IMG/VR virus record: IMGVR_UViG_2778261692_000005
Source of the DNA: a virus
Taxonomy: Duplodnaviria > Heunggongvirae > Uroviricota > Caudoviricetes
Strand: one strand, 5' to 3'
DNA: 37,344 nucleotides
Under the pieces are notes generated by a model. The model was given only the letters and a program-made list of their open reading frames with translations, was not told where the DNA came from and did no database searches. The position numbers were made by a program, and so were the translations under genes. Below, piece by piece: positions 2,648-37,344 of this stretch; position 1 is the first letter of the stretch, and the number at the start of each line of letters is the position of its first letter.

Positions 2648-3757
2648 TCACTCTGTTTCCGCTATCCATTCCGGGATTTTTGCCTCAAGCTCAAGCTGCG
2701 TGGTAAAGCCGCTGTTATCAATGGTGTGCTCGGCTTTTGCAATAATCCAGTCCTGATTATCAATCTCGCTTTTAAATCCTGTTACCGTGCCATGCATTTC
2801 GGGGTAGAGTTCTGCGCGTCCACGTGCCAGCGTGATGGAGAATGATGCGGCTCCGCGTTGTAGCTGCTGCCACTTTGCCGCCGCTGCGCGTCTTGCTGCC
2901 TGCTCGTTCTGATAAGTCTTGCGTAACACAAACACATTGCCTTCTGCGCCTTCCATATAATCACCTTCACGGCTGCTGCTTTTCTCCTTTTTGGGTTTTG
3001 GCGGTTTGCGGCGTTTCACGCTGACTTTTTTCTTTTTCCCGTAATTAAGATCAAGCCAGTAGGCGCGTACCCCCGTATACGCCTCGCGGTCAGCAATGCG
3101 GAACTGATGGCGATCGCCGCTGCTGCGTGTAATGGCGAACGAGGGCAACGGCTGGCCCTGTGCGTTCACGCCACCACCTGGCATGATGAATAACAGATTG
3201 CCGCTTTTTACCGTGGTGATTGCGCCCAGCATTTCCGCCATGCGCGTAAGGAAGGACATGTCACTTTCTTCGGTCTGGTCGGCGTGGTCGATTTCGATAT
3301 CCATCAGCATTTCGCTGATTTGCGGTTTCAGACCGTACCGATGAGCGATGGCGGATACCACTCGCTCAACGGTCACATCATGCCAGGACACCTCACGTTT
3401 AACGTTAAATTCATCCCGAAAATCTGCGCTTCTGGCTGAAACCGTCAGCCTGTCCGGCGGTCCTTCGTGAGCGATTTCATCAACAATGTAAGTGCCTTTT
3501 TCTGTCAGCGGTTCGCCTTTCCAGCCAATGAGAACCGTCAGGCGCGCGCCCCGTGGCGGTAGCTGCAACTGACCATCCGCATCATCCAGCGTGATGGTGA
3601 GCTGGTCCGCTTCAAATCCCCGGTTGTCGGTCAGTGACAGGCTCATTAGGCGCTCTGCCACGCCGGACAGTGTTTCCCCCTCCGCGAGAATATCAAAATC
3701 CGGCATTTTCACGGGGTCTGTGCTCTGACTGAGCAATTGCATGGTGGTGTCGGTCAT
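2648..3757 (-). CDS. D: tail protein D (late control gene D family)
   Basis: Start placed at MTDTTMQLLSQS (RBS GGAGGGAG upstream) rather than the track ORF start; translation recognised as the gpD family. Confidence 0.88.
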   Translation of the reverse strand: MTDTTMQLLSQSTDPVKMPDFDILAEGETLSGVAERLMSLSLTDNRGFEADQLTITLDDADGQLQLPPRGARLTVLIGWKGEPLTEKGTYIVDEIAHEGPPDRLTVSARSADFRDEFNVKREVSWHDVTVERVVSAIAHRYGLKPQISEMLMDIEIDHADQTEESDMSFLTRMAEMLGAITTVKSGNLLFIMPGGGVNAQGQPLPSFAITRSSGDRHQFRIADREAYTGVRAYWLDLNYGKKKKVSVKRRKPPKPKKEKSSSREGDYMEGAEGNVFVLRKTYQNEQAARRAAAAKWQQLQRGAASFSITLARGRAELYPEMHGTVTGFKSEIDNQDWIIAKAEHTIDNSGFTTQLELEAKIPEWIAETE

Positions 3758-3914
3758 CTGCTCCCTCCCTGTGTGGCATGGTCGCATGTGCGTGCGGAGG
3801 GGGTTACTGCTTTTTGTTGTCGCCGTGGCGGGAGAACGGCGCAGGGGTGAGATTACGCGCGTGGTGGGTGATGATTGTTGCCGAATCATTTAACGGATAC
3901 AAGGGGCTGAAGCT
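3758..3914. promoter_or_regulatory. divergent late promoter region between D (-) and FI (+)
   Basis: 157-bp intergenic region between divergently transcribed late operons; no Ogr TGT-N12-ACA site confidently identified. Confidence 0.35.
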
Positions 3915-5099
3915 ATGAGTGAAACTCGTTTTCATGGTGCCCGTGTTACGGAAAATACCGACCTGGTAACAGCGATTAACGATGTTGATTCCAGCGTTAT
4001 CGGTATCGTGGCAACGGCGGATGATGCGGACGCGAAGTTGTTCCCGCTGAACAAGCCCACACTGCTGACCCGCGTCAATGACGTGCTGGGAAAATGCGGA
4101 ACAACGGGGACGCTTTATCGTGCGCTTAAGGCCATCGCAGACCAGGTGAGCACAAAGGTGATCGTCGTTCGCGTGGCTGAACACAAAGAAGAAGACGAAA
4201 AGACGCAGGATCAACTGGTTATCGGTGGTTCTGAGGATGACGGCAGCTATACGGGGATGTATGCGCTGCTTGTTGCAGAGCAGGATGAAAGCATCGGATA
4301 CCGTCCGCGTATTCTGGCCGCGCCGGAGCTGGACACGGAGGCGGTGACAAAATCCCTGTGCGTGATTGCGGGTAAACTGCGCGCATTTGTGTATGCCTCA
4401 TGTCACGGCTGTAACACGATGGCTGAAGCGATTACCTACCGCCAGAAATTCAACGAACGTGAAGTGATGCTCTTATGGCCGGACTTCATCGCCTACAACC
4501 CGAAAAGTGGCGAAAACGAAACGTTCCCCGCGCCTGCTTATGCGTGCGGCCTTCGTGCGTACATTGACCATGAGCAGGGCTGGCACAAATCGCTGTCCAA
4601 CGTTCCGGTTAAAAATGTGCTGGGGATGTCGAGGCATGTGTTCTGGTCGTTGCAGGCCGAAGACAGCGATGCCAACAGCCTCAACAACAAAGAAATCACG
4701 ACCATTATTCGTCGCAACGGGTTCCGCTTCTGGGGCAACCGCACACCGGAAACGAACGCCTACATTTTTGAGGTGTATACCCGAACCGCACAGGTGCTGG
4801 CTGATTCAATTGCGGAAGCGCAGTTTGAAACCATCGACAGTCCACTGACGCCTGCGAACGTGAAGGATGTTATCAGTGCCATCAGGGCAAAACTGGATTC
4901 ACTGGTGACTGCCGGGAAACTGATTGGCGCGGAGTGCTGGTATGACGTGGTGGATAACAGCACCACGGATTTACGTCAGGGGCGTGTGCGTATTCGCTAC
5001 AAATATACGCCTGTTCCCCCGCTGGAAGACATGGAGCTTTACCAGACGTTTACTGATGAATACTTTGAACCCGCATTTGCGGTGCTGGGAGGTGCCTGA
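3915..5099 (+). CDS. FI: contractile tail sheath protein
   Basis: 394 aa; N-terminus MSETRFHGARVTE...FPLNKPTLLTRVND parallels P2 FI (…HGVQV…FPLNKPVLIT); RBS AAGGGG. Confidence 0.9.
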   Translation: MSETRFHGARVTENTDLVTAINDVDSSVIGIVATADDADAKLFPLNKPTLLTRVNDVLGKCGTTGTLYRALKAIADQVSTKVIVVRVAEHKEEDEKTQDQLVIGGSEDDGSYTGMYALLVAEQDESIGYRPRILAAPELDTEAVTKSLCVIAGKLRAFVYASCHGCNTMAEAITYRQKFNEREVMLLWPDFIAYNPKSGENETFPAPAYACGLRAYIDHEQGWHKSLSNVPVKNVLGMSRHVFWSLQAEDSDANSLNNKEITTIIRRNGFRFWGNRTPETNAYIFEVYTRTAQVLADSIAEAQFETIDSPLTPANVKDVISAIRAKLDSLVTAGKLIGAECWYDVVDNSTTDLRQGRVRIRYKYTPVPPLEDMELYQTFTDEYFEPAFAVLGGA

Positions 5100-25103: not shown

Positions 25104-25650
25104 TTATGAAGTATGGTCGGCAAGGTGCCGTATCGCTGACGCGCTTCGCTTGTCTGCTGCTTCGCCGGGGCATAAAAAATTTATGCCCCGACTCTCCAGC
25201 TCCTGTATCAATCAGATAATTTCACGACGCCTTCCAGCTTATTGTCATCATCGACGGTCAGGCTCTTACGCAATCCCGCCGTGCTGACTGCATGTTCTCG
25301 TCGCCTCAGTGCGATTTTGACGGCCTTATCAGTCACCCCATCAAATCAAAAGCCCTCACGTATTTTTCACGCTCAGCGTGAGAAAGACAGCCATTCCGTT
25401 GTGTCGCTGCGACATCGTTCAGGGAATGCTGTTTACCCCCTGAAACGCGGGCTGTTCCCCCGTCACCTGCGCGCAGAAAAAGCGCGTTTTTTTGTGCGCG
25501 CACGGATCCTTGACGGATCCAGCCGCCATGCGGGCCGGAAGGGTAAAAAGTCGTTCAAAAAAATTGTGCAAATTTGTGCACTTTTGTGCAAACAAAAAGC
25601 GCCCCTGAGGCGCTTTAGTGTTTTATAGGTTGTGTATATTGGCTGGGTCC
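25104..25650. other. ~550-bp non-coding region; candidate cos/packaging or regulatory region
   Basis: No credible ORF; contains hairpin GGGGCATAAA/TTTATGCCCC (25167-25189), palindromic decamers CTGCGCGCAG and GTGCGCGCAC (about 25467-25503), tandem CGGATCC (25503-25520) and three TGTGCA motifs at exact 10-bp spacing (25565-25590). Confidence 0.4.
25590..25616 (-). terminator. rho-independent terminator of the minus-strand cargo operon
   Basis: Stem AGCGCC/GGCGCT followed on the minus strand by TTTTTGTTTG, directly after the orf87 stop. Confidence 0.6.
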
Positions 25651-25914
25651 TTATCCTGCTGTGCTTTCAACTGATGAGGGGAACAAAATCTTTTCATCAA
25701 ACCCTGCATTCATATCATGGACAGCAACACACCAATCCATTGACGAACGATTATCAAGAGCCTCCATGATTTCATCCATGCGGCGTAGGTCATACAGGTA
25801 AATGTTTTTATCGCCAATGGTGTAAAAACCAATTTTTCTCGGTGACGGGCAGCGATCAAGAACGTTCTGTAATTCGCTCAACCATGCCTGTTCCTTTTTT
25901 GTCAAAGTTGCCAT
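25651..25914 (-). CDS. hypothetical protein (87 aa), last gene of the parM operon
   Basis: RBS AAGGAG overlapping the upstream gene's last codons; starts MATLTKKEQ; no family recognised. Confidence 0.55.
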   Translation of the reverse strand: MATLTKKEQAWLSELQNVLDRCPSPRKIGFYTIGDKNIYLYDLRRMDEIMEALDNRSSMDWCVAVHDMNAGFDEKILFPSSVESTAG

Positions 25915-25915
25915 A

Positions 25916-26407
25916 TCACTCTCCTTTGATGCGAATGCCAGTGGTACTCATTCTCCTGATTTCCCAGAGCACACGAGGAACACCACCGTCTCCGACCGGA
26001 TCGCGTTTACTCCGCAGGGCGACGCTTGATTCCGCCCAGCTTTTTCTTGGAGGAAGCTCTTTCACACGAACAAAACCAGCTGCGCGGAGAGATGCTCCTG
26101 ATTCATCTGCCCGGGTGTACGTAATACAACGTTGATAACCCATAGCCTTTGCTGCCCGCCAGACAGCACCATAAAGCGCGCTGTTAGCGTTGCGTTCTCC
26201 TGTGGTACATGTGCGATTTACTTCAAGCGTTAATCCATCGTCCAAATGTCGTGCAACAGGTCGACCGGCTGTCGCCACACCTATCAATTCTCCGGCATCA
26301 TTTCTCAGACCAATGCTGAATTTATGCCCCACCGGGGGTTTATTGTGTCGGTGATGTCTGGATATAAATGCCTTCGCAACACGAAGAGTAACCGGTGAAA
26401 TTTGCAT
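25916..26407 (-). CDS. hypothetical protein (about 163 aa); weak GNAT-like pattern at most
   Basis: Start taken at MQISPVTLRV (2 nt after upstream stop); C-terminus ends …GIRIKGE like the preceding gene; no family confidently recognised. Confidence 0.55.
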   Translation of the reverse strand: MQISPVTLRVAKAFISRHHRHNKPPVGHKFSIGLRNDAGELIGVATAGRPVARHLDDGLTLEVNRTCTTGERNANSALYGAVWRAAKAMGYQRCITYTRADESGASLRAAGFVRVKELPPRKSWAESSVALRSKRDPVGDGGVPRVLWEIRRMSTTGIRIKGE

Positions 26408-26409
26408 TC

Positions 26410-26841
26410 TCACTCGCCTTTGATGCCAATGTTTACAGCCTGGCAAGCCTCTTTGAGCACCCAGTCAACAGCGTCTTTCCATGCTCCGGTTTCGGCTGGC
26501 GGATTCTCACTCTTTACCAGTTCATAGAAACGCACTGCGTTTACCAGTCCTCTTGGTACTGCTGGCGCTGGCGGCTCTCGATACATAGGGATAACACGTC
26601 GCGGGTCCGCGTATTTATCTGGCGGACACTGAAATATCTCACCGAAACCATACTGCTTGACATCACGCAGTTCCTCATCATCAGTCCATGCAACAGGTTT
26701 CGCTTCCAGCGATGTGAGTGCGATTTTCAGTGCGATTAACATATTGTGATCGTTTTCATCAAGGCCAAACGGGATGTCTTCACGACACGATTCAAGGTCT
26801 GCAATTTTGCGTTGTAACCATTTTTTGGGGATAGTTGCCAT
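26410..26841 (-). CDS. hypothetical protein (143 aa)
   Basis: RBS AGGAGAGGAG 5 nt upstream; starts MATIPKKW; ends …NIGIKGE; no family recognised. Confidence 0.55.
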   Translation of the reverse strand: MATIPKKWLQRKIADLESCREDIPFGLDENDHNMLIALKIALTSLEAKPVAWTDDEELRDVKQYGFGEIFQCPPDKYADPRRVIPMYREPPAPAVPRGLVNAVRFYELVKSENPPAETGAWKDAVDWVLKEACQAVNIGIKGE

Positions 26842-26860: not shown

Positions 26861-27175
26861 TCACTCTGGGAAAAATGACTGAATGTTCTTTCTTATCTCG
26901 CTAGTGCTGTGATTGCTTCCGGTGGCAGGTGCGCTGGCATATTTACTCTGAATATTATTCTTGGCTGGCGCAGCTCCTTCTTCCGGCCATTCGGCCAACC
27001 AATAGGCAAATGCAGGATCGCGTTTTATGAGTGCCAGCCCGGCCAGAAAGGCCGCGCGTTGCGCGCGGCTGCGTTCAGAGGCTGGCAGGCTGTCGAGGTA
27101 ATTACACGCCTCCCGTTCACTATTGACGGCGACTGGCTTCAGATAGAAACTTATCCGTCTGGTTGGTGTCGTCAT
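26861..27175 (-). CDS. parR: ParR-like partition adaptor / centromere-binding RHH protein
   Basis: Start at MTTPTRRISFYLKPVAVN…LDSLPASERSRAQRAAFLAGLALIKRDP matches the N-terminal RHH region of plasmid R1 ParR (IAFKLNPDVN…LDSIPQGERSRLNRAALTAGLALYRQDP). Confidence 0.75.
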   Translation of the reverse strand: MTTPTRRISFYLKPVAVNSEREACNYLDSLPASERSRAQRAAFLAGLALIKRDPAFAYWLAEWPEEGAAPAKNNIQSKYASAPATGSNHSTSEIRKNIQSFFPE

Positions 27176-27179
27176 TGGT

Positions 27180-28139
27180 TTACTCCTTGTCCATTGCGTA
27201 CAGCCCATTAACCAGAGCAAACTGTGGCACCCCGTCCGCGATGAAAGTCGCATTAACTCCGCAGGCTTCGCGGATAGCGGGTGCCACAATCTCCGCCCCA
27301 CCACCGACAACCATCACCCGCCCGTAACCCGAAAAACCCGCCAGCGCGCGGATCACGCGTTGTTTCAGTGTTTCTTCCTTTTCACGAATAACCGCCATCA
27401 GGCTGGCGTAATGCGCGTCATTGTGGATGTGCTGGCGCAGCCAGGCTTCATCATGGCGATGTTCGATAATGGTATTGGCGATGTGGTGACTGGTGCGCAT
27501 ACCGTTAGTGGCCATCACCGACAGTACGGCATCGGCCATCAGAGAAACGCCTACGTGTGGATCGCAAAACACCTGGCTGATACCTGCCAGTTGCCCCTGA
27601 ACCTTTGCCACATCCAGCGTGGTTCCGCCCAAATCCACAATCAGCAGGGATTCAAACGGACTCATGTCAGCCAGTGCCTTAAAGCCAGCCGGAATGGATT
27701 CAGGCATAACCCGTACGTTACGGATAGTGAATGCTTCGCCGTTCTGGTACTCCACCGGGCGCATAACGTTCGCTTTTTTGCGGTTGATGTTGGTCATGTC
27801 CGGCTGTGCGTTTGTGTCGAAATACTCGCTCAGTGGCAGGGTGACAACCACATCCACCTCCTGTGGCGTGATGCCTGATTTGACCAGCGCGTGATGAATG
27901 GCAATGACATTCACATCGCTGTACTGGTATTGCGTGTCGGTCGTCTGGACAAAGCGATCGCTGACCGGATCAAAACCATAGCGCACGCCATCAAGCATGT
28001 AGTTTGCGGGCTGCGTGCCACCGAACGGCGCAGACCATTCCGACTTGAAGCTGTTCGGGCTGATGGCGTTGCGGCGTTCGCCGTTCTCAGTCCATGCCAG
28101 CTTGATGTTGGTGGAGCCGTCATCGATACAAATTTTCAT
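27180..28139 (-). CDS. parM: ParM/StbA-like actin-family segregation ATPase
   Basis: MKICIDDGSTNIKLAW…ISPNSF…YSDVNV…VMPESIPAGF…LLIVDLGGTTLDV…GVSL…FSGY…VGGGAE…LVNG aligns along its length with R1 ParM; RBS AAGGAA. Confidence 0.85.
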   Translation of the reverse strand: MKICIDDGSTNIKLAWTENGERRNAISPNSFKSEWSAPFGGTQPANYMLDGVRYGFDPVSDRFVQTTDTQYQYSDVNVIAIHHALVKSGITPQEVDVVVTLPLSEYFDTNAQPDMTNINRKKANVMRPVEYQNGEAFTIRNVRVMPESIPAGFKALADMSPFESLLIVDLGGTTLDVAKVQGQLAGISQVFCDPHVGVSLMADAVLSVMATNGMRTSHHIANTIIEHRHDEAWLRQHIHNDAHYASLMAVIREKEETLKQRVIRALAGFSGYGRVMVVGGGAEIVAPAIREACGVNATFIADGVPQFALVNGLYAMDKE

Positions 28140-28168
28140 GTCGCTTTTCCTTATGTTGATTAATTAAT

Positions 28169-28281
28169 CGTTTACGGGATTCTGAAATCCCGTTTTTGCC
28201 TGTTTTATGCGCGCTTCATATATCGCGGCGCGTTTTTTGCTCATTTACGGGATTTGTGAATCCCGTTTCTGTCTGTTTTTT
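28169..28281. repeat. two ~38-bp direct repeats each containing the hairpin ACGGGATT-N5-AATCCCGT; candidate parC-like centromere/operator
   Basis: Copy 1 (28169-28206) lies between gene A and parM over the likely parM promoter; copy 2 (28242-28281) lies inside the last codons of gene A. Confidence 0.4.
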
Positions 28282-31056
28282 GTTTCCACTGGTCAGGCCA
28301 CCCCGCAGCAGGTCTGCTTTGCGGCGGGCGCGTTCAGTGGTTTCACTGATTCTCTGTGCGTGCTCTGCGTCGCGGATGGCGCGCAGCATGTCAGAAAGCA
28401 CGGTAACGGGTGTTTTCATGGTGTTCTGGTCCTGCTGAAGTGTGGATGCCAGGCGTGCGGCGGCTTCGGGGTCTGATGCCCCCAGCTGTTCCAGATAGCT
28501 GGCGACCGGGTTATGGCGGATCTCCGTGCTGCTTACGCCGTGGTTACGGCTCAGGCGCTGCCAGAGCTGCGTGATCCGGCTGTCCGGGCGGGTATCCGGT
28601 TTGCGTACAATTTCAAATCCCTGCGGTGCAATGATGCTGCCGTCAACGTACAGACTGCCGCCCCGTAACAGGTGCTGCATCTGCTGTTCACCAATATGCA
28701 GGCCGAGAGATTCAGCAGACTCCCGCCATTCTTTAGCGAGTAATTCGTGGTTATCAGGCAAAGGCCGCTGCTGTTTGCGGCTCTGTGTCCAGCTCTGCAT
28801 TTCATCACTGCTGTTTTTTGCCTGTTTGTCACGAAGCGAACGCATCAGCGCCCGGCGTTCGTGCCGTTTCAGTGAGCGCATCCATTCGTTCACTTCAACG
28901 CCGTCAGGGAGCTGCGGCCACGGTGCTGGCCGTTCTTCCGGCTGTTCTGTCCCGTTGTTGTCCGTTTCCTGTACACGGGGACAGTTATTGCCACGAGTCC
29001 AAGGGGCGGCAGGGCCGCCCTGAAGGTCAAAACCATTTTCGTGGGCGCTGCCTTCCTGTTCCGGTTTACGTCTTACCAGCTTCCAGTTATCCGGGTGCGT
29101 GCACACACGGGAGGATTCCCCGATGAGTGGTGACCAGATCCCGTAAATCTGTACACTCTGTTCGCCGTAATCGTTCAGCTCATCGGCGAGGTCGTAGGCG
29201 GTGCGAATCAGGTAGTCTTTGCGTGGAACAAGTACGCCGCCCTGTTTCTCTATGTAGGTGGCAAAACATCCGGCATCAGCGGCAGCGAGTACCGCATCCA
29301 TTGCGTCATCCTTCAGCCGTTGCGGGCCTTCCGGGTTGCGTGCCATCTGGCTGGCAAGGCGGCGGAGTTCACGCCACACCTGACGGGAGGGGATGCCAAA
29401 GAACTGGAACTGGCGGACCCGGTGAAGGCGTGCCCAACCGATGGCGCGCTCCACGCTCTCGGCCATTGATTTTCCGGTTTCGTGGTCAACGCGTGGTTTG
29501 CCCGTTTTCGGGTCGATGCCATCCACGGCGCGGCTGTCCAGGTTTTTCCCGATGTAGGTCGCGATATAGCTGGTTGGTGTGCCTTTTGAGCCGTCGACAT
29601 ACTCCACTTTAAAGCGCGGAGTAATATCATTGCCCAGCTCGTGGCGGTCTTCCTGAATGGCAATATCGCGGGTGATGGCCACGATGCTGTCGATTTCTTC
29701 CGGATGAGCAAAGACCATCATATGCCAGTGCACGGTGCCGTCATGGTGAGGCTCCACCGTGCGGATGCCATACCAGCGCAGGCCGTCGCGGTTCAGTTTT
29801 TTGCGGACCGCCGCAAAAAACGTGTTAACCAGGTAATCGCTGGAGTCGCGCATGGTGGCCCCGTTCCATTTGGGGTTCGGATGACCGTTCTCCGTTGTTG
29901 CGTGGTATTTTGACGGGCAGGTGACAGTCAGAAACACCGCTCTGTCGCCACGGGCTTTGGCCAGAAGTTCCAGTCCCTTCATGGTGGCCATCATTTCTGC
30001 CTTACGGTGAACCGGGTTACTTACTCCCGCGTAATACACTGTCTCGAGATCAATCGTGAACCCGTCTTCGTTTTCCAGCATGAAACTTTTCAGGAAATCG
30101 CGTGTTTTCTCGCGCTGTGCGCGAAACTCGCTTAACGCGTCCTGGCTCAGATAGGGCGATGTTTTTCTGGAAACCAGACAGGCGGCGCGGAGTTGTTCTT
30201 CTCTCCACTCGCAACGTAACAGCCACAGTTTGCGTTTCCACCATTCCGCACAGGTCAGGCGAAGGATTGCGCCCGGCAGCAGCTCCGTGTCCGGTTCGTT
30301 CCTCCGGTCTTTATCTGTTGTCAGTGCGTCATAATGTGGAGGCATGATGTGCAGGTGTAACGCCATGCGGGCCAGCATCTGATACGCCTTCAGCGTTACA
30401 TCCATGGTCAGTTCGCCATCGGTCGCGCCAAAGCCATCGCAGAGTTTTTCGAAGGTGCTGCTGAACATCGCCGCCGTCATGGTGGCCAGCGTCTGTATCT
30501 GGTGTTTGTTGAGCTGCGGCAGGTAAAGCAAATCGTCCAGGCGTTCGCGTCCGGCAAGGGAGCGATAACCCGGTGTCAGCCAGCGTCCGTCAGTGCGATC
30601 CAGACGTTCGAATATTTTGCGCAGGGTTCCGCGTGCATAGCGTTCCGCCTGCCAGCTCTTTTTGCCTTTCCGGCGATCAGCTTCCTGTTTTTTGCGCAGG
30701 AAGGAGAGGTGGCGACTCAGAGGTTCTCGCAGATAAACGGGAAGCGCCTTCAGTGTGGCAAAGGCACGGGCTACCGGGTCTTGTTCTGTTGCCCGGCGCT
30801 TACTGATGATGCTCTGTGCCAGCTTTTCACGCTGTCCGGCTTCCTCAAGGGATGCCATGAGTTTTTTACCCACGGTGGATTGTGCGAAAAAGGCTTCCTC
30901 CTTCGCTTCCTGTTCTTCCAGAGCCTTTTTGTCTGCCTCAAGGTAGTAACGGATGGCGCGTTGCAGGTCGGTTTCAGTTTCCTGCCTGTGCTCCGTAAAT
31001 CTGGCTGGATCAATGGCTGGCCGTGGTTCATTCCAGCTCCATGCAAACTCACTCAT
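28216..31056 (-). CDS. A: replication initiation endonuclease A (rolling-circle initiator)
   Basis: About 946 aa from ATG overlapping the upstream stop (ATGA); recognised as the P2/186 gpA family. Confidence 0.88.
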   Translation of the reverse strand: MSEFAWSWNEPRPAIDPARFTEHRQETETDLQRAIRYYLEADKKALEEQEAKEEAFFAQSTVGKKLMASLEEAGQREKLAQSIISKRRATEQDPVARAFATLKALPVYLREPLSRHLSFLRKKQEADRRKGKKSWQAERYARGTLRKIFERLDRTDGRWLTPGYRSLAGRERLDDLLYLPQLNKHQIQTLATMTAAMFSSTFEKLCDGFGATDGELTMDVTLKAYQMLARMALHLHIMPPHYDALTTDKDRRNEPDTELLPGAILRLTCAEWWKRKLWLLRCEWREEQLRAACLVSRKTSPYLSQDALSEFRAQREKTRDFLKSFMLENEDGFTIDLETVYYAGVSNPVHRKAEMMATMKGLELLAKARGDRAVFLTVTCPSKYHATTENGHPNPKWNGATMRDSSDYLVNTFFAAVRKKLNRDGLRWYGIRTVEPHHDGTVHWHMMVFAHPEEIDSIVAITRDIAIQEDRHELGNDITPRFKVEYVDGSKGTPTSYIATYIGKNLDSRAVDGIDPKTGKPRVDHETGKSMAESVERAIGWARLHRVRQFQFFGIPSRQVWRELRRLASQMARNPEGPQRLKDDAMDAVLAAADAGCFATYIEKQGGVLVPRKDYLIRTAYDLADELNDYGEQSVQIYGIWSPLIGESSRVCTHPDNWKLVRRKPEQEGSAHENGFDLQGGPAAPWTRGNNCPRVQETDNNGTEQPEERPAPWPQLPDGVEVNEWMRSLKRHERRALMRSLRDKQAKNSSDEMQSWTQSRKQQRPLPDNHELLAKEWRESAESLGLHIGEQQMQHLLRGGSLYVDGSIIAPQGFEIVRKPDTRPDSRITQLWQRLSRNHGVSSTEIRHNPVASYLEQLGASDPEAAARLASTLQQDQNTMKTPVTVLSDMLRAIRDAEHAQRISETTERARRKADLLRGGLTSGNKKQTETGFTNPVNEQKTRRDI

Positions 31057-31442
31057 GGCTGGTATCCCGTCACGCGCAGCCACTCCTGCGAGAAGAGGGT
31101 GGAAAGGCGGTTAAATTCAGCGGTGTATTCACTCAGCGAGGCACACCCGCCAGCAGTGCGATGCGCCAGCATTGCCGCAAATACGGAGGCCGGGGAGTCG
31201 TAATACGCCAGTAGTGATTCGCCGTGTGGTGTCAGGCAGTGCAACGCCAGCCCGTGTGGTGTGAAGTCCACGCGGTAGCAGTCGTCTACTGTGAAATAAA
31301 GGGTGTCTGCATTCTCTGGTTTTGTGGTACGTGCTCTGTTGTCACGACCACGGATGTAGAGATCAAATAATCCCTGAAGAACGGGAGCCAGACGGGTGTC
31401 CTGTGTGCGCACCCATCTTGTGAAGTCATGAGCGTCAATCAT
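31053..31442 (-). CDS. hypothetical early-operon protein (129 aa)
   Basis: Translationally coupled to A; RBS AAAGAGA. Confidence 0.6.
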   Translation of the reverse strand: MIDAHDFTRWVRTQDTRLAPVLQGLFDLYIRGRDNRARTTKPENADTLYFTVDDCYRVDFTPHGLALHCLTPHGESLLAYYDSPASVFAAMLAHRTAGGCASLSEYTAEFNRLSTLFSQEWLRVTGYQP

Positions 31443-31745: not shown

Positions 31746-32067
31746 GGTGTGGCCTCTTTGCTCGGTGATAGAAATAGCTCACCATCCAGAGTTGAGAATC
31801 TCGGGGTGGCGAGACGTACAGGGTTCTCAACACCGGAGAGCAAAGAATCCGGCCCGACCGAAGTCGGCCCCGTACGCCCCGCCATAATTCTGACGCGAAA
31901 AAGACGTGGCAATACAGTACGCACAAAAAAACCGCTGGCGCGGTTATGCGCTTTGCTCTGTATCGGGTTGAGAATCCCGGCACCCGTTTTATGAGGTGCA
32001 GCGGAAATGTAACCTGACCGATTGCGGCATGGCAAGCGGTTTTTTTGTGTGTGCATGTTCTGGTTTC
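31746..32067. other. ~320-bp non-coding stretch inside the early operon with GTTGAGAA inverted repeats and terminator-like hairpins
   Basis: Only low-complexity ORFs overlap; GTTGAGAA/TTCTCAAC inverted pair around 31790-31830, third copy around 31965; hairpin ACCGC-N4-GCGGT with A7/T7 flank around 31925-31945. Confidence 0.4.
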
Positions 32068-36342: not shown

Positions 36343-37344
36343 ATGTCGGTTCGTAAGATTCCATCAGGTAAATGGCTTTGCGAATGTTATCCCTACGGGG
36401 CATCGGGAAAACGCATTCGTAAACAGTTTGCGACAAAAAGTGAGGCGCTCTCTTATGAGCGCCGTTTAATGAATAGTAGAGTTGGAGACGAGTTTCAAGA
36501 TGGTTCTGGTCCTCGTCTTTCTGAGTTGATTGCTCGTTGGTTTGAGATGTACGGTAAAACCTTGTCCTCTGGTGCAGAGCGCAAAGTCAAACTTGAGGCG
36601 ATTTGTTCCAGGCTGGGAGATCCATTTGCTTCTCAGTTTGACAAAAATATGTTTGCTACTTATCGGGAAAGAAGGCTATCAGGAGAATGGAATCCCAAGG
36701 GGAAGAAAAAACTTAGTGAAGCAACCGTTAATCGCGAGCAGTCATATCTACATGCTGTTTTTGCCGAACTGAAGCGCCTTGGGGAGTGGTCTGGTGAAAA
36801 CCCCCTGACTGGTATTCGCAAGTTTCGTGAGGAAGAAAAGGAACTGGCGTTTCTGTATGTAGATGAGATTGAACGCCTTCTGATTGCGTGTGATGAGTCA
36901 CGGAATAAAGATTTGGGGGTTGTTGTCCGTATTGGGCTTGCGACGGGTGCTCGGTGGAGTGAAGCAGAAGGATTAAAGCAATCTCAAGTACTGCCCGGTC
37001 GAATCACATTTGTTAAAACTAAAGGAAAGAAGAACCGCACTGTACCGATTTCACCTCAATTGCAGGCTATGCTTCCTAAAAAACGAGGAGCGCTATTTTC
37101 ACCATGTTATGAGGCTTTTGACGCTGCAATTAAGAGAGCGAAGATCGAGCTTCCTGATGGGCAATTAACTCATGTGCTACGTCACACGTTTGCCAGTCAT
37201 TTTATGATGCGGGGCGGAAATATTCTTGTGTTGCAAAAAATACTGGGGCATAGCGATATAAAAATGACTATGCGTTATGCGCATTTTGCTCCAGGTCATT
37301 TAGAGGCTGCTGTTGAATTGAACCCTTTTGACAATAGAGGGTAA
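36343..37344 (+). CDS. int: tyrosine integrase, P2 Int family
   Basis: 333 aa; …GKRIRKQF.TKSEA…, …LATGARWSEAEGL…, …VTFVKTKGKKNRTVPIS…, …HVLRHTFASHFMMRGG…LGH…MRYAHFAP…LNP match P2 Int including catalytic R…H-x-x-R…Y region. Confidence 0.9.
   Translation: MSVRKIPSGKWLCECYPYGASGKRIRKQFATKSEALSYERRLMNSRVGDEFQDGSGPRLSELIARWFEMYGKTLSSGAERKVKLEAICSRLGDPFASQFDKNMFATYRERRLSGEWNPKGKKKLSEATVNREQSYLHAVFAELKRLGEWSGENPLTGIRKFREEEKELAFLYVDEIERLLIACDESRNKDLGVVVRIGLATGARWSEAEGLKQSQVLPGRITFVKTKGKKNRTVPISPQLQAMLPKKRGALFSPCYEAFDAAIKRAKIELPDGQLTHVLRHTFASHFMMRGGNILVLQKILGHSDIKMTMRYAHFAPGHLEAAVELNPFDNRG

Follow-up and report, generated by a model that had tools for sequence, protein, structure and literature searches.

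The window analysed here, a 37,344-nt stretch of Caudoviricetes DNA (IMG/VR record IMGVR_UViG_2778261692_000005), is an integrated P2-like (P88-type) Escherichia coli prophage that carries an actin-type parMR partition cassette between its replication gene A and a block of variable cargo genes. The left end of the prophage, with ogr and gpD just inside it, adjoins pgsA and the genes for tRNA-Gly, tRNA-Cys and tRNA-Leu, and a tyrosine integrase gene (int, 36343-37344, cut by the window end) lies at the right end. These flanks, together with Pfam and PDB matches of the cassette proteins, support the original prediction of an actin-type parMR cassette in an int-bearing, integrated P2-like prophage. 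As had also been proposed, the cassette lies directly downstream of gene A (28216..31083, minus strand), which encodes a P2-type replication endonuclease (Pfam Phage_GPA, 5e-131; named replication endonuclease by the Prokaryotic Genome Annotation Pipeline, PGAP). Both are read in the same direction, with 76 nt between the end of gene A at 28216 and the parM ATG.

The first cassette gene, parM (27180..28139, minus strand), encodes an actin-like segregation ATPase of 319 aa. Its matches to Pfam StbA_N (2.9e-82) and to the ParM C-terminal domain (1.3e-68) are both far above the cut-offs and place the protein in the ParM/StbA family; among PHROGs it belongs to PHROG 691 ('partition protein'). Residues 2-316 match plasmid R1 ParM (PDB 1mwk, E 9e-93), with 47% identity to R1-type ParM over 318 residues, the full length of the protein. 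The nucleotide-binding motifs IDDGSTNIKL, DLGGTTLD and GGGAE (VVGGGAE) are intact and identical to those of R1. Across IMG/VR loci, 70 distinct haplotypes were compared; the first, second and third codon positions of parM have a diversity of 0.006, 0.004 and 0.053, respectively, so parM is under strong purifying selection.

The second gene, parR (26861..27175, minus strand), has its ATG at 27175, 4 nt beyond the end of parM, and its stop at 26861. It encodes a predicted ribbon-helix-helix centromere-binding adaptor of 104 aa that matches Pfam Plasmid_stab_B (3.8e-25, cut-off 25 bits), so that both family assignments now have profile matches. The N-terminal ribbon-helix-helix domain matches pB171 ParR (2jd3, E 0.005). 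Identity to R1 ParR is 43% and limited to residues 1-63; the R1 ParR sequence used was confirmed at 100% identity in more than 1000 plasmids, beside parM. Alignment to the R1 pair along the whole length, as first described, therefore holds for ParM and is restricted to the N-terminal domain in ParR.

Three segments make up ParR: a DNA-binding domain (residues 1-64), a hypervariable, indel-rich linker (65-95), and a conserved C-terminal tail. All of 22 homologues have the strand RRISFYLKP unchanged and conserve the tail (I/M)KxNIQxFFPE, with variation in the linker. ParR is far more variable than ParM (50-98% identity among Escherichia homologues), and the tail is kept across this whole range as well as across genera. 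The AlphaFold monomer has helices at residues 20-29, 32-52 and 54-61, disorder at 62-89 and a C-terminal helix at 90-101, consistent with the canonical layout of a DNA-binding domain, a flexible linker and a putative ParM-capturing tail. ParR works as an obligate dimer, and a Foldseek search with the monomer (mean predicted local distance difference test score 66) was uninformative, returning nothing below E = 2.7. Since the structured variation of ParR follows the canonical layout, the conserved, predicted-helical tail argues that contact between ParR and ParM is retained. In the linker (26897-26983), diversity at the three codon positions is 0.27, 0.32 and 0.35, with indels, or roughly six-fold the diversity at synonymous sites of parM next to it. 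In megablast comparisons with other P88-type phages, homology is interrupted at several points inside parR (27123, 27030 and about 26982), and the variable cargo region thus effectively starts within this gene.

Two 42-nt direct repeats, 81% identical and 73 bp apart, lie upstream of parM on the minus strand (28168..28209 and 28241..28282). Two repeats had been expected, at a length of about 38 bp. Each holds a perfect 20-bp palindrome of the form ACGGGATT-N4-AATCCCGT, a pattern that matches precisely two sites in the 37 kb and that reached two matches in none of 100 shuffles; the N5 spacer given for the hairpin at the outset matches nowhere. The proximal repeat is intergenic, and its palindrome (ACGGGATT-TCAG-AATCCCGT, 28174-28193), a candidate parC site 2, is centred 44 nt upstream of the parM ATG. 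The palindrome of the distal repeat (ACGGGATT-CACA-AATCCCGT, 28247-28266), a candidate parC site 1 at what appears to be the left edge of a mobile cassette, does occupy the last codons of gene A, as anticipated (codons -17 to -11). In the E. coli haplotypes, the GGGAT/ATCCC cores are nearly invariant and the loops and outer positions vary. Between the proximal repeat and parM, a leader (28140..28167, minus strand) consisting of TTAATTAATCAAC and the Shine-Dalgarno sequence AAGGA is nearly invariant in the same haplotypes. The TTAATCAA motif and the Shine-Dalgarno sequence just before parM are conserved in three genera, being found in Plesiomonas and Hafnia loci too; this motif could be a weak promoter (-10 element) or a translation signal.

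The edges of the cassette are visible where related prophages differ. Two E. coli prophages with a P88-type gene A and no parMR (L171 and L173) have neither palindrome anywhere in the locus, and their homology to the window ends at 28319 and 28332, before the distal repeat. Conversely, two loci in which a different gene lies upstream of parM (L172 and L049) retain both palindromes, and their homology begins at 28280, in the first bases of that repeat. Because the palindromes are absent without parMR and kept with a different upstream gene, they belong to parMR and not to gene A, and the repeats are a cis element of the cassette. The same comparison puts the mobile unit at 28282-26861, almost exactly the interval proposed originally. 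Repeated cis sites that are candidate ParR sites thus lie upstream of parM and travel with it. This gene A C-terminus was found in 80 IMG/VR loci, of which 77 have parM and the remaining three are truncated contigs. A role of the palindromes as the origin or nick site of gene A was considered and rejected, as gene A alleles without parMR do not have them.

Natural variants of this junction were also found. In IMGVR_UViG_2657245439_000011 (4380-4500), 73 bp between the repeats have been deleted, so that parM, itself intact, is preceded by a single hybrid palindrome (ACGGGATTTAAAAATCCTGT). An extra open reading frame (ORF) of about 150 to 167 aa lies between gene A and parM in L172 (4100-4565), in L049 (about 3680-3990) and in a Hafnia locus (L175, 4453-4956); that of L172 has paired CxxC motifs at its start. 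The last 20 codons of the L172 and L049 ORFs (KQTETGFTNPVNEQKTRRDI) are the same ones that contain the distal palindrome, which is therefore always embedded in the end of whichever ORF precedes parM.

No promoter of the cassette's own was detected. A scan of the region upstream of parM for the sigma-70 consensus found no site, and the best score in a position weight matrix (PWM) scan of that region was 3.1, a value equalled by 83% of shuffles, compared with 10.3 for the R1 parC control. A promoter picked by eye (TTCAGA-16-ATTAAT) scored 1.65, below chance level, and was rejected; the earlier suggestion that one repeat overlaps a probable parM promoter is accordingly not supported. An operon promoter embedded in parC and autoregulated by ParR was thus not found, and a weak or activator-dependent promoter may exist. 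Terminator scans found no sense-strand terminator between gene A and parM, and the first strong one (25616-25596) comes after three cargo genes. Because there is no intervening sense-strand terminator and no detectable promoter of its own, parMR is probably transcribed by read-through from the gene A unit, so that its products and the replication protein would be made at the same time. Candidate promoters for this unit are an early-promoter-like site at 34880-34852 and sites beside the isrK and C4 RNAs at about 32035 and 31912. In the early region, Rfam matches mark two RNAs on the minus strand (31802-31889 and 31925-31999), C4 antisense RNA at 78.5 bits and isrK at 62.8 bits. They immediately precede a 'derepression protein' gene and gene A, and make up an antisense immunity module of P1/P7 style in a P2-like phage. 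The promoters and terminator (31945-31930) of this module bear on transcription of gene A and parMR.

The cassette is common in E. coli and almost always chromosomal. A 1.7-kb region containing it is present at a coverage of at least 80% in 1179 of 5426 complete E. coli genomes (1369 with any match), so that about a quarter carry it, including O104:H4, O157:H7, O111, O145 and ST131 strains. There are up to three copies per genome. Of 1532 places in these genomes, 1530 are chromosomal and two are on plasmids, and all 311 places with this integrase type are chromosomal. In the phage collection, the region is confined to P2-like phages of the P88/Xuanwuvirus type, whose annotations already list ParM plus a partition protein; RefSeq names both genes, and PHROGs has families for both proteins. 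The cassette genes are therefore already known as annotations.

Three records lie outside this pattern or resemble exceptions to it. A circular 34,461-bp sequence deposited as 'plasmid' pZ1323PEC0009-2 (NZ_CP148288.1 in PLSDB, 1-34461) is a complete P88-type genome with parMR, a Hok/Gef toxin gene and a Com/methyltransferase pair beside ogr; the circle may be an episome or an induced replicative form. The 228-kb conjugative KPC plasmid pC-Ec2-KPC (IncC; NZ_MK439959.1, 14600-37800) contains a rearranged P88-type prophage, including gene A and parMR, between IS26 copies, and here a phage-derived parMRC is riding on a plasmid. A ParM-based scan of genome contigs gave only three loci at 98% identity or more, one of them labelled Vagococcus (NZ_JBQPOM010000071.1, Vagococcus sp. 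WN89Y). The ParM in this Gram-positive assembly is 98% identical to the E. coli phage protein, and is most likely contamination with Enterobacterales DNA.

To look for deeper relatives of ParM, 5.8 billion proteins were searched. Below 91% identity there is a gap, and the next relatives are those of Plesiomonas (63%), Hafnia (62%), Serratia (57% to 58%) and Enterobacter (54%). At every relative locus looked up, the element is a P2-like prophage in which parM has a Phage_GPA gene A on one side and the portal gene on the other, and is followed by a Plasmid_stab_B ParR and then variable cargo, whereas relatives at 52% identity or less are in plasmid-like or integrative and conjugative element contexts. 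In a neighbour-joining tree, which is rough and without bootstrap, the ParMs of P2-like prophages group apart from R1-type and IncFII and IncL/M plasmid ParMs. Because these relatives share the same slot and their ParMs group apart from plasmid ParMs, the association between ParMR and P2-like phages is old, spanning at least five genera.

The upstream sites are conserved along with the proteins. Escherichia, Plesiomonas and Hafnia each have exactly two GGG-N10-CCC sites in the 200 bp upstream of parM, at -44/-117, -51/-123 and -47/-120 from the ATG, respectively, with a spacing of 72 to 73 bp; the chance of two or more such sites in 200 bp is 0.0002 to 0.0016 per locus. These three genera share the ParR strand TRR(I/V)SFYL. 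Serratia and Enterobacter have NRKISFYL instead and, in place of two palindromes, one long inverted repeat with GGGAAC...ATAGAAAAAT arms. As they differ in both the ParR strand and the repeats, the design of the sites changes with the ParR subclade. The conserved arrangement and the separate ParM clade point to a conserved function in the phage life cycle, not a recent accident.

Purifying selection of this strength is puzzling for a module on an integrating phage, which should not need plasmid partition. We consider it somewhat likelier true than false that the cassette is a functional type II (ParMRC) segregation system, a fixed accessory module of P88-type P2-like temperate phages that acts on the free circular genome. 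This reading builds on the family membership, the purifying selection on parM, the cassette boundaries, the co-occurrence of the sites with parMR and their conservation across genera, and the chromosomal location, all established in this analysis. In mechanism and ALTERNATIVES, the cassette would be a working ParMRC machine with a minimal two-site centromere. ParR dimers would bind the two 20-bp palindromes, with GGG-N10-CCC cores 73 bp or about seven helical turns apart, through their ribbon-helix-helix N-terminal domains, and the conserved C-terminal tail would capture the ends of ATP-driven ParM filaments. Growth of a filament between two ParR-bound DNA copies would then push them apart. 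Because the prophage is almost always integrated, the cassette can matter only in a free-circle phase; it would presumably act after infection or excision, while the gene A protein replicates the circle, and the phage would benefit as replicating circles are spread through the cell and into both daughters.

Several points weigh against this interpretation. The candidate centromere is small, with two palindromes and room for at most about four ParR dimers compared with the ten iterons of R1, and the natural deletion variant has only a single hybrid palindrome. The cassette is dispensable, some otherwise similar prophages being without it, and a gain from segregation is not obvious in a lytic cycle of less than 1 h. 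On the plus strand, the hairpins and their T-runs resemble intrinsic terminators. The promoter-like sites by the isrK and C4 RNAs upstream of gene A might drive some transcription in lysogens, and a weak promoter could include the conserved TTAATCAA motif. In the literature searched, we found no experiment on the cassette and no study testing or discussing the function of ParMR in P88-type phages.

Among the other explanations, the filaments might serve only to move or anchor replicating circles, in the manner of AlpAC of a Corynebacterium prophage, raising the efficiency of replication or packaging with no role in inheritance. The position of the cassette directly behind the replication gene, conserved across five genera, would suit such a role, and alpAC mutants have a two-fold lower phage copy number, in a study whose authors argue against segregation (PMC4446434). 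However, ParM is a close member of the R1 family (47%), and R1 ParM has a well-known mechanism of pushing DNA copies apart; AlpC belongs to a different actin-like family, and its operon has the reverse gene order. Positioning and segregation are outcomes between which the sequence does not distinguish, and positioning alone seems to us a doubtful account, if one to be kept in mind. A lifestyle in which P88-type phages persist for many generations as low-copy plasmid prophages maintained by ParMRC is unlikely. It would explain the circular P88-type record with parMR and a Hok/Gef toxin gene, and a related StbA/StbB pair is used by D6, a known plasmid prophage. The circular contig could equally arise by spontaneous induction, though, and in the PGAP annotation of an identical prophage the gene A endonuclease of P2 type is the sole replication protein, with no initiator of the plasmid kind listed. 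The chromosomal position of nearly all E. coli copies, and of every copy with this integrase type, also speaks against plasmid maintenance, as does the integration of the window itself beside tRNA-Leu. A phage-plasmid phase as the norm, one of the two possibilities raised originally, is thus not supported, with a single 34.5-kb circular record found; a transient free-circle phase in which the cassette acts is the best remaining reading.

The palindromes need not be a centromere if they are plus-strand terminators that shield gene A from antisense cargo transcription, or RNA hairpins that stabilise the A-parM message. The terminator scan flags both as terminator-like on the plus strand (8-bp stem, 4-nt loop, T-rich tail), the RNA hairpins fold at -10 to -13 kcal/mol (z-scores -2 to -3.6), and cargo genes converge on parR in some relatives. 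Yet the two stems are identical at 16 of 16 positions and the loops differ, as expected of a protein-binding site, and across genera only GGG and CCC in fixed register are conserved, with stem pairing largely lost in Plesiomonas. The population variants 28193 A/G, 28176 C/T and 28260 T/C break pairing on either strand and are uncompensated; as they favour neither strand, a conserved RNA hairpin was rejected as the main explanation. The sites co-occur with parMR and not with cargo orientation, and Rfam, searched with the region as well as with the full window, gave no match at the repeats. The pattern of variation is more in keeping with protein binding at these sites than with an RNA hairpin or terminator, and although such a role could coexist with ParR binding, we regard it as very unlikely to replace it. 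Least probable, in our estimate, is a role in interference or regulation, with ParR and ParM disturbing incoming plasmids or related phages that share the centromere, or ParR regulating read-through from gene A into the cargo. In P2, the exclusion genes old and tin occupy the slot that separates gene A from the portal gene, the cassette borders the corresponding variable region, and a genome may have up to three copies of it. Against this, parMR is constant while the cargo varies, and PADLOC has no family for any of six proteins (ParM, ParR and four encoded downstream), leaving a defence role with no support. Purifying selection extends to the whole ParM ATPase and to the ParR tail that is predicted to bind it, neither of which a pure regulator would need.

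In a bolder reading, integrating P2-like phages across the Enterobacterales would use their own old ParMRC lineage as a viral cytoskeleton in the free-circle phase. It would either organise replicating monomeric circles so that lytic growth is efficient or sustain a hidden, dividing carrier state before integration or lysis. We put this forward tentatively, as a possibility that is on balance not the expected outcome; if true, it would add a stage that has gone unrecognised to the life cycle of a prophage family that is among the commonest in E. coli. The cassette boundaries, the two-palindrome candidate centromere, the lack of an internal promoter and the existence, in at least five genera, of a ParMRC lineage that P2-like phages have to themselves all appear to be undescribed. 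A 1.4-kb cassette with two 20-bp sites in an inducible E. coli phage (P88; PMC5285337) is a tractable system for the study of actin-like filaments in integrating viruses and elements.

Downstream of parR and outside the cassette lies the variable cargo (25596..26841, minus strand), comprising orf143, a gene for an XF1762/Mom-like protein and orf87. Comparison of related prophages showed that the cargo differs among them and that parMR is constant, which speaks against the second possibility raised originally, that the ParMR pair had been repurposed as part of a downstream cargo operon. The cargo operon follows parR directly and includes an ORF at 25916-26407 (minus strand) whose product is a DNA-modification protein of the XF1762 family, or Mom-like, with matches to NCBIfam (1.3e-60), to PHROG 1384 ('Mom-like', 1.8e-41) and, below the cut-off, to Pfam Mom (1e-4). 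This ORF sits between genes for unknown phage proteins at 26410-26841 and 25651-25914 (PHROG 660 and PHROG 1714, respectively), with which it may form an anti-restriction DNA-modification module.

Among known systems, the cassette resembles ParMRC of plasmids R1 and R100 (StbA/StbB/parC) in its components: the full-length ParM match with intact motifs, the gene order parC-parM-parR, and a ParR with a ribbon-helix-helix N-terminal domain and a basic/hydrophobic C-terminal tail (KKN motif). The binding-site cores of both contain A-CCC, and the R1 iteron core (AACCC) resembles each arm of the palindromes. However, in R1 parC a strong promoter has five direct iterons of 11 bp on each side, whereas the P88-type cassette has two 20-bp palindromes, one of them inside the end of a replication gene, with no detectable promoter and nothing like ten iterons. 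The replicons also differ, R1 being a plasmid and the P88-type host an integrating P2-like phage. The cassette may thus provide a minimal natural ParMRC centromere for comparison with the R1 paradigm. StbA/StbB of D6, a P1-like phage-plasmid, belong to the same families (ParM 48% and ParR 30% identical), and the D6 annotation itself reads 'similar to phage P88 StbA protein'. D6, however, persists in plasmid form, and the repeats upstream of its pair are multiple, direct and AT-rich, whereas the P88 type integrates and its ParM is in a separate clade restricted to P2-like prophages.

A looser parallel is AlpAC/alpS of the 187-kb prophage CGP3 of Corynebacterium glutamicum. Here too an integrated prophage encodes an actin-like filament protein and a DNA-binding adaptor that binds repeats upstream of the operon (PMC4446434, PMC5539076). 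The alpAC genes are induced early and act on excised circular phage DNA, and the authors favour positioning at the membrane over segregation (PMC4446434). AlpAC differs in its actin-like family, in having the adaptor gene first, in its Gram-positive host and in the cryptic state of the prophage. The closest parallel is SrpMRC of the SXT/R391 elements, a ParM-type system on a normally integrated element. Its SrpM is no more than a distant relative of R1 ParM, and a ParR domain cannot be recognised in SrpR (PMC4489591). SXT/R391 is a conjugative element, whereas the P88-type host is a phage in which both proteins are clearly of the R1 family. Both systems have a normally integrated carrier and a few direct and inverted repeats upstream of the motor gene. 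Expression of SrpMRC occurs solely alongside that of excision and replication functions, and the system keeps the excised circular form stable (PMC4489591).

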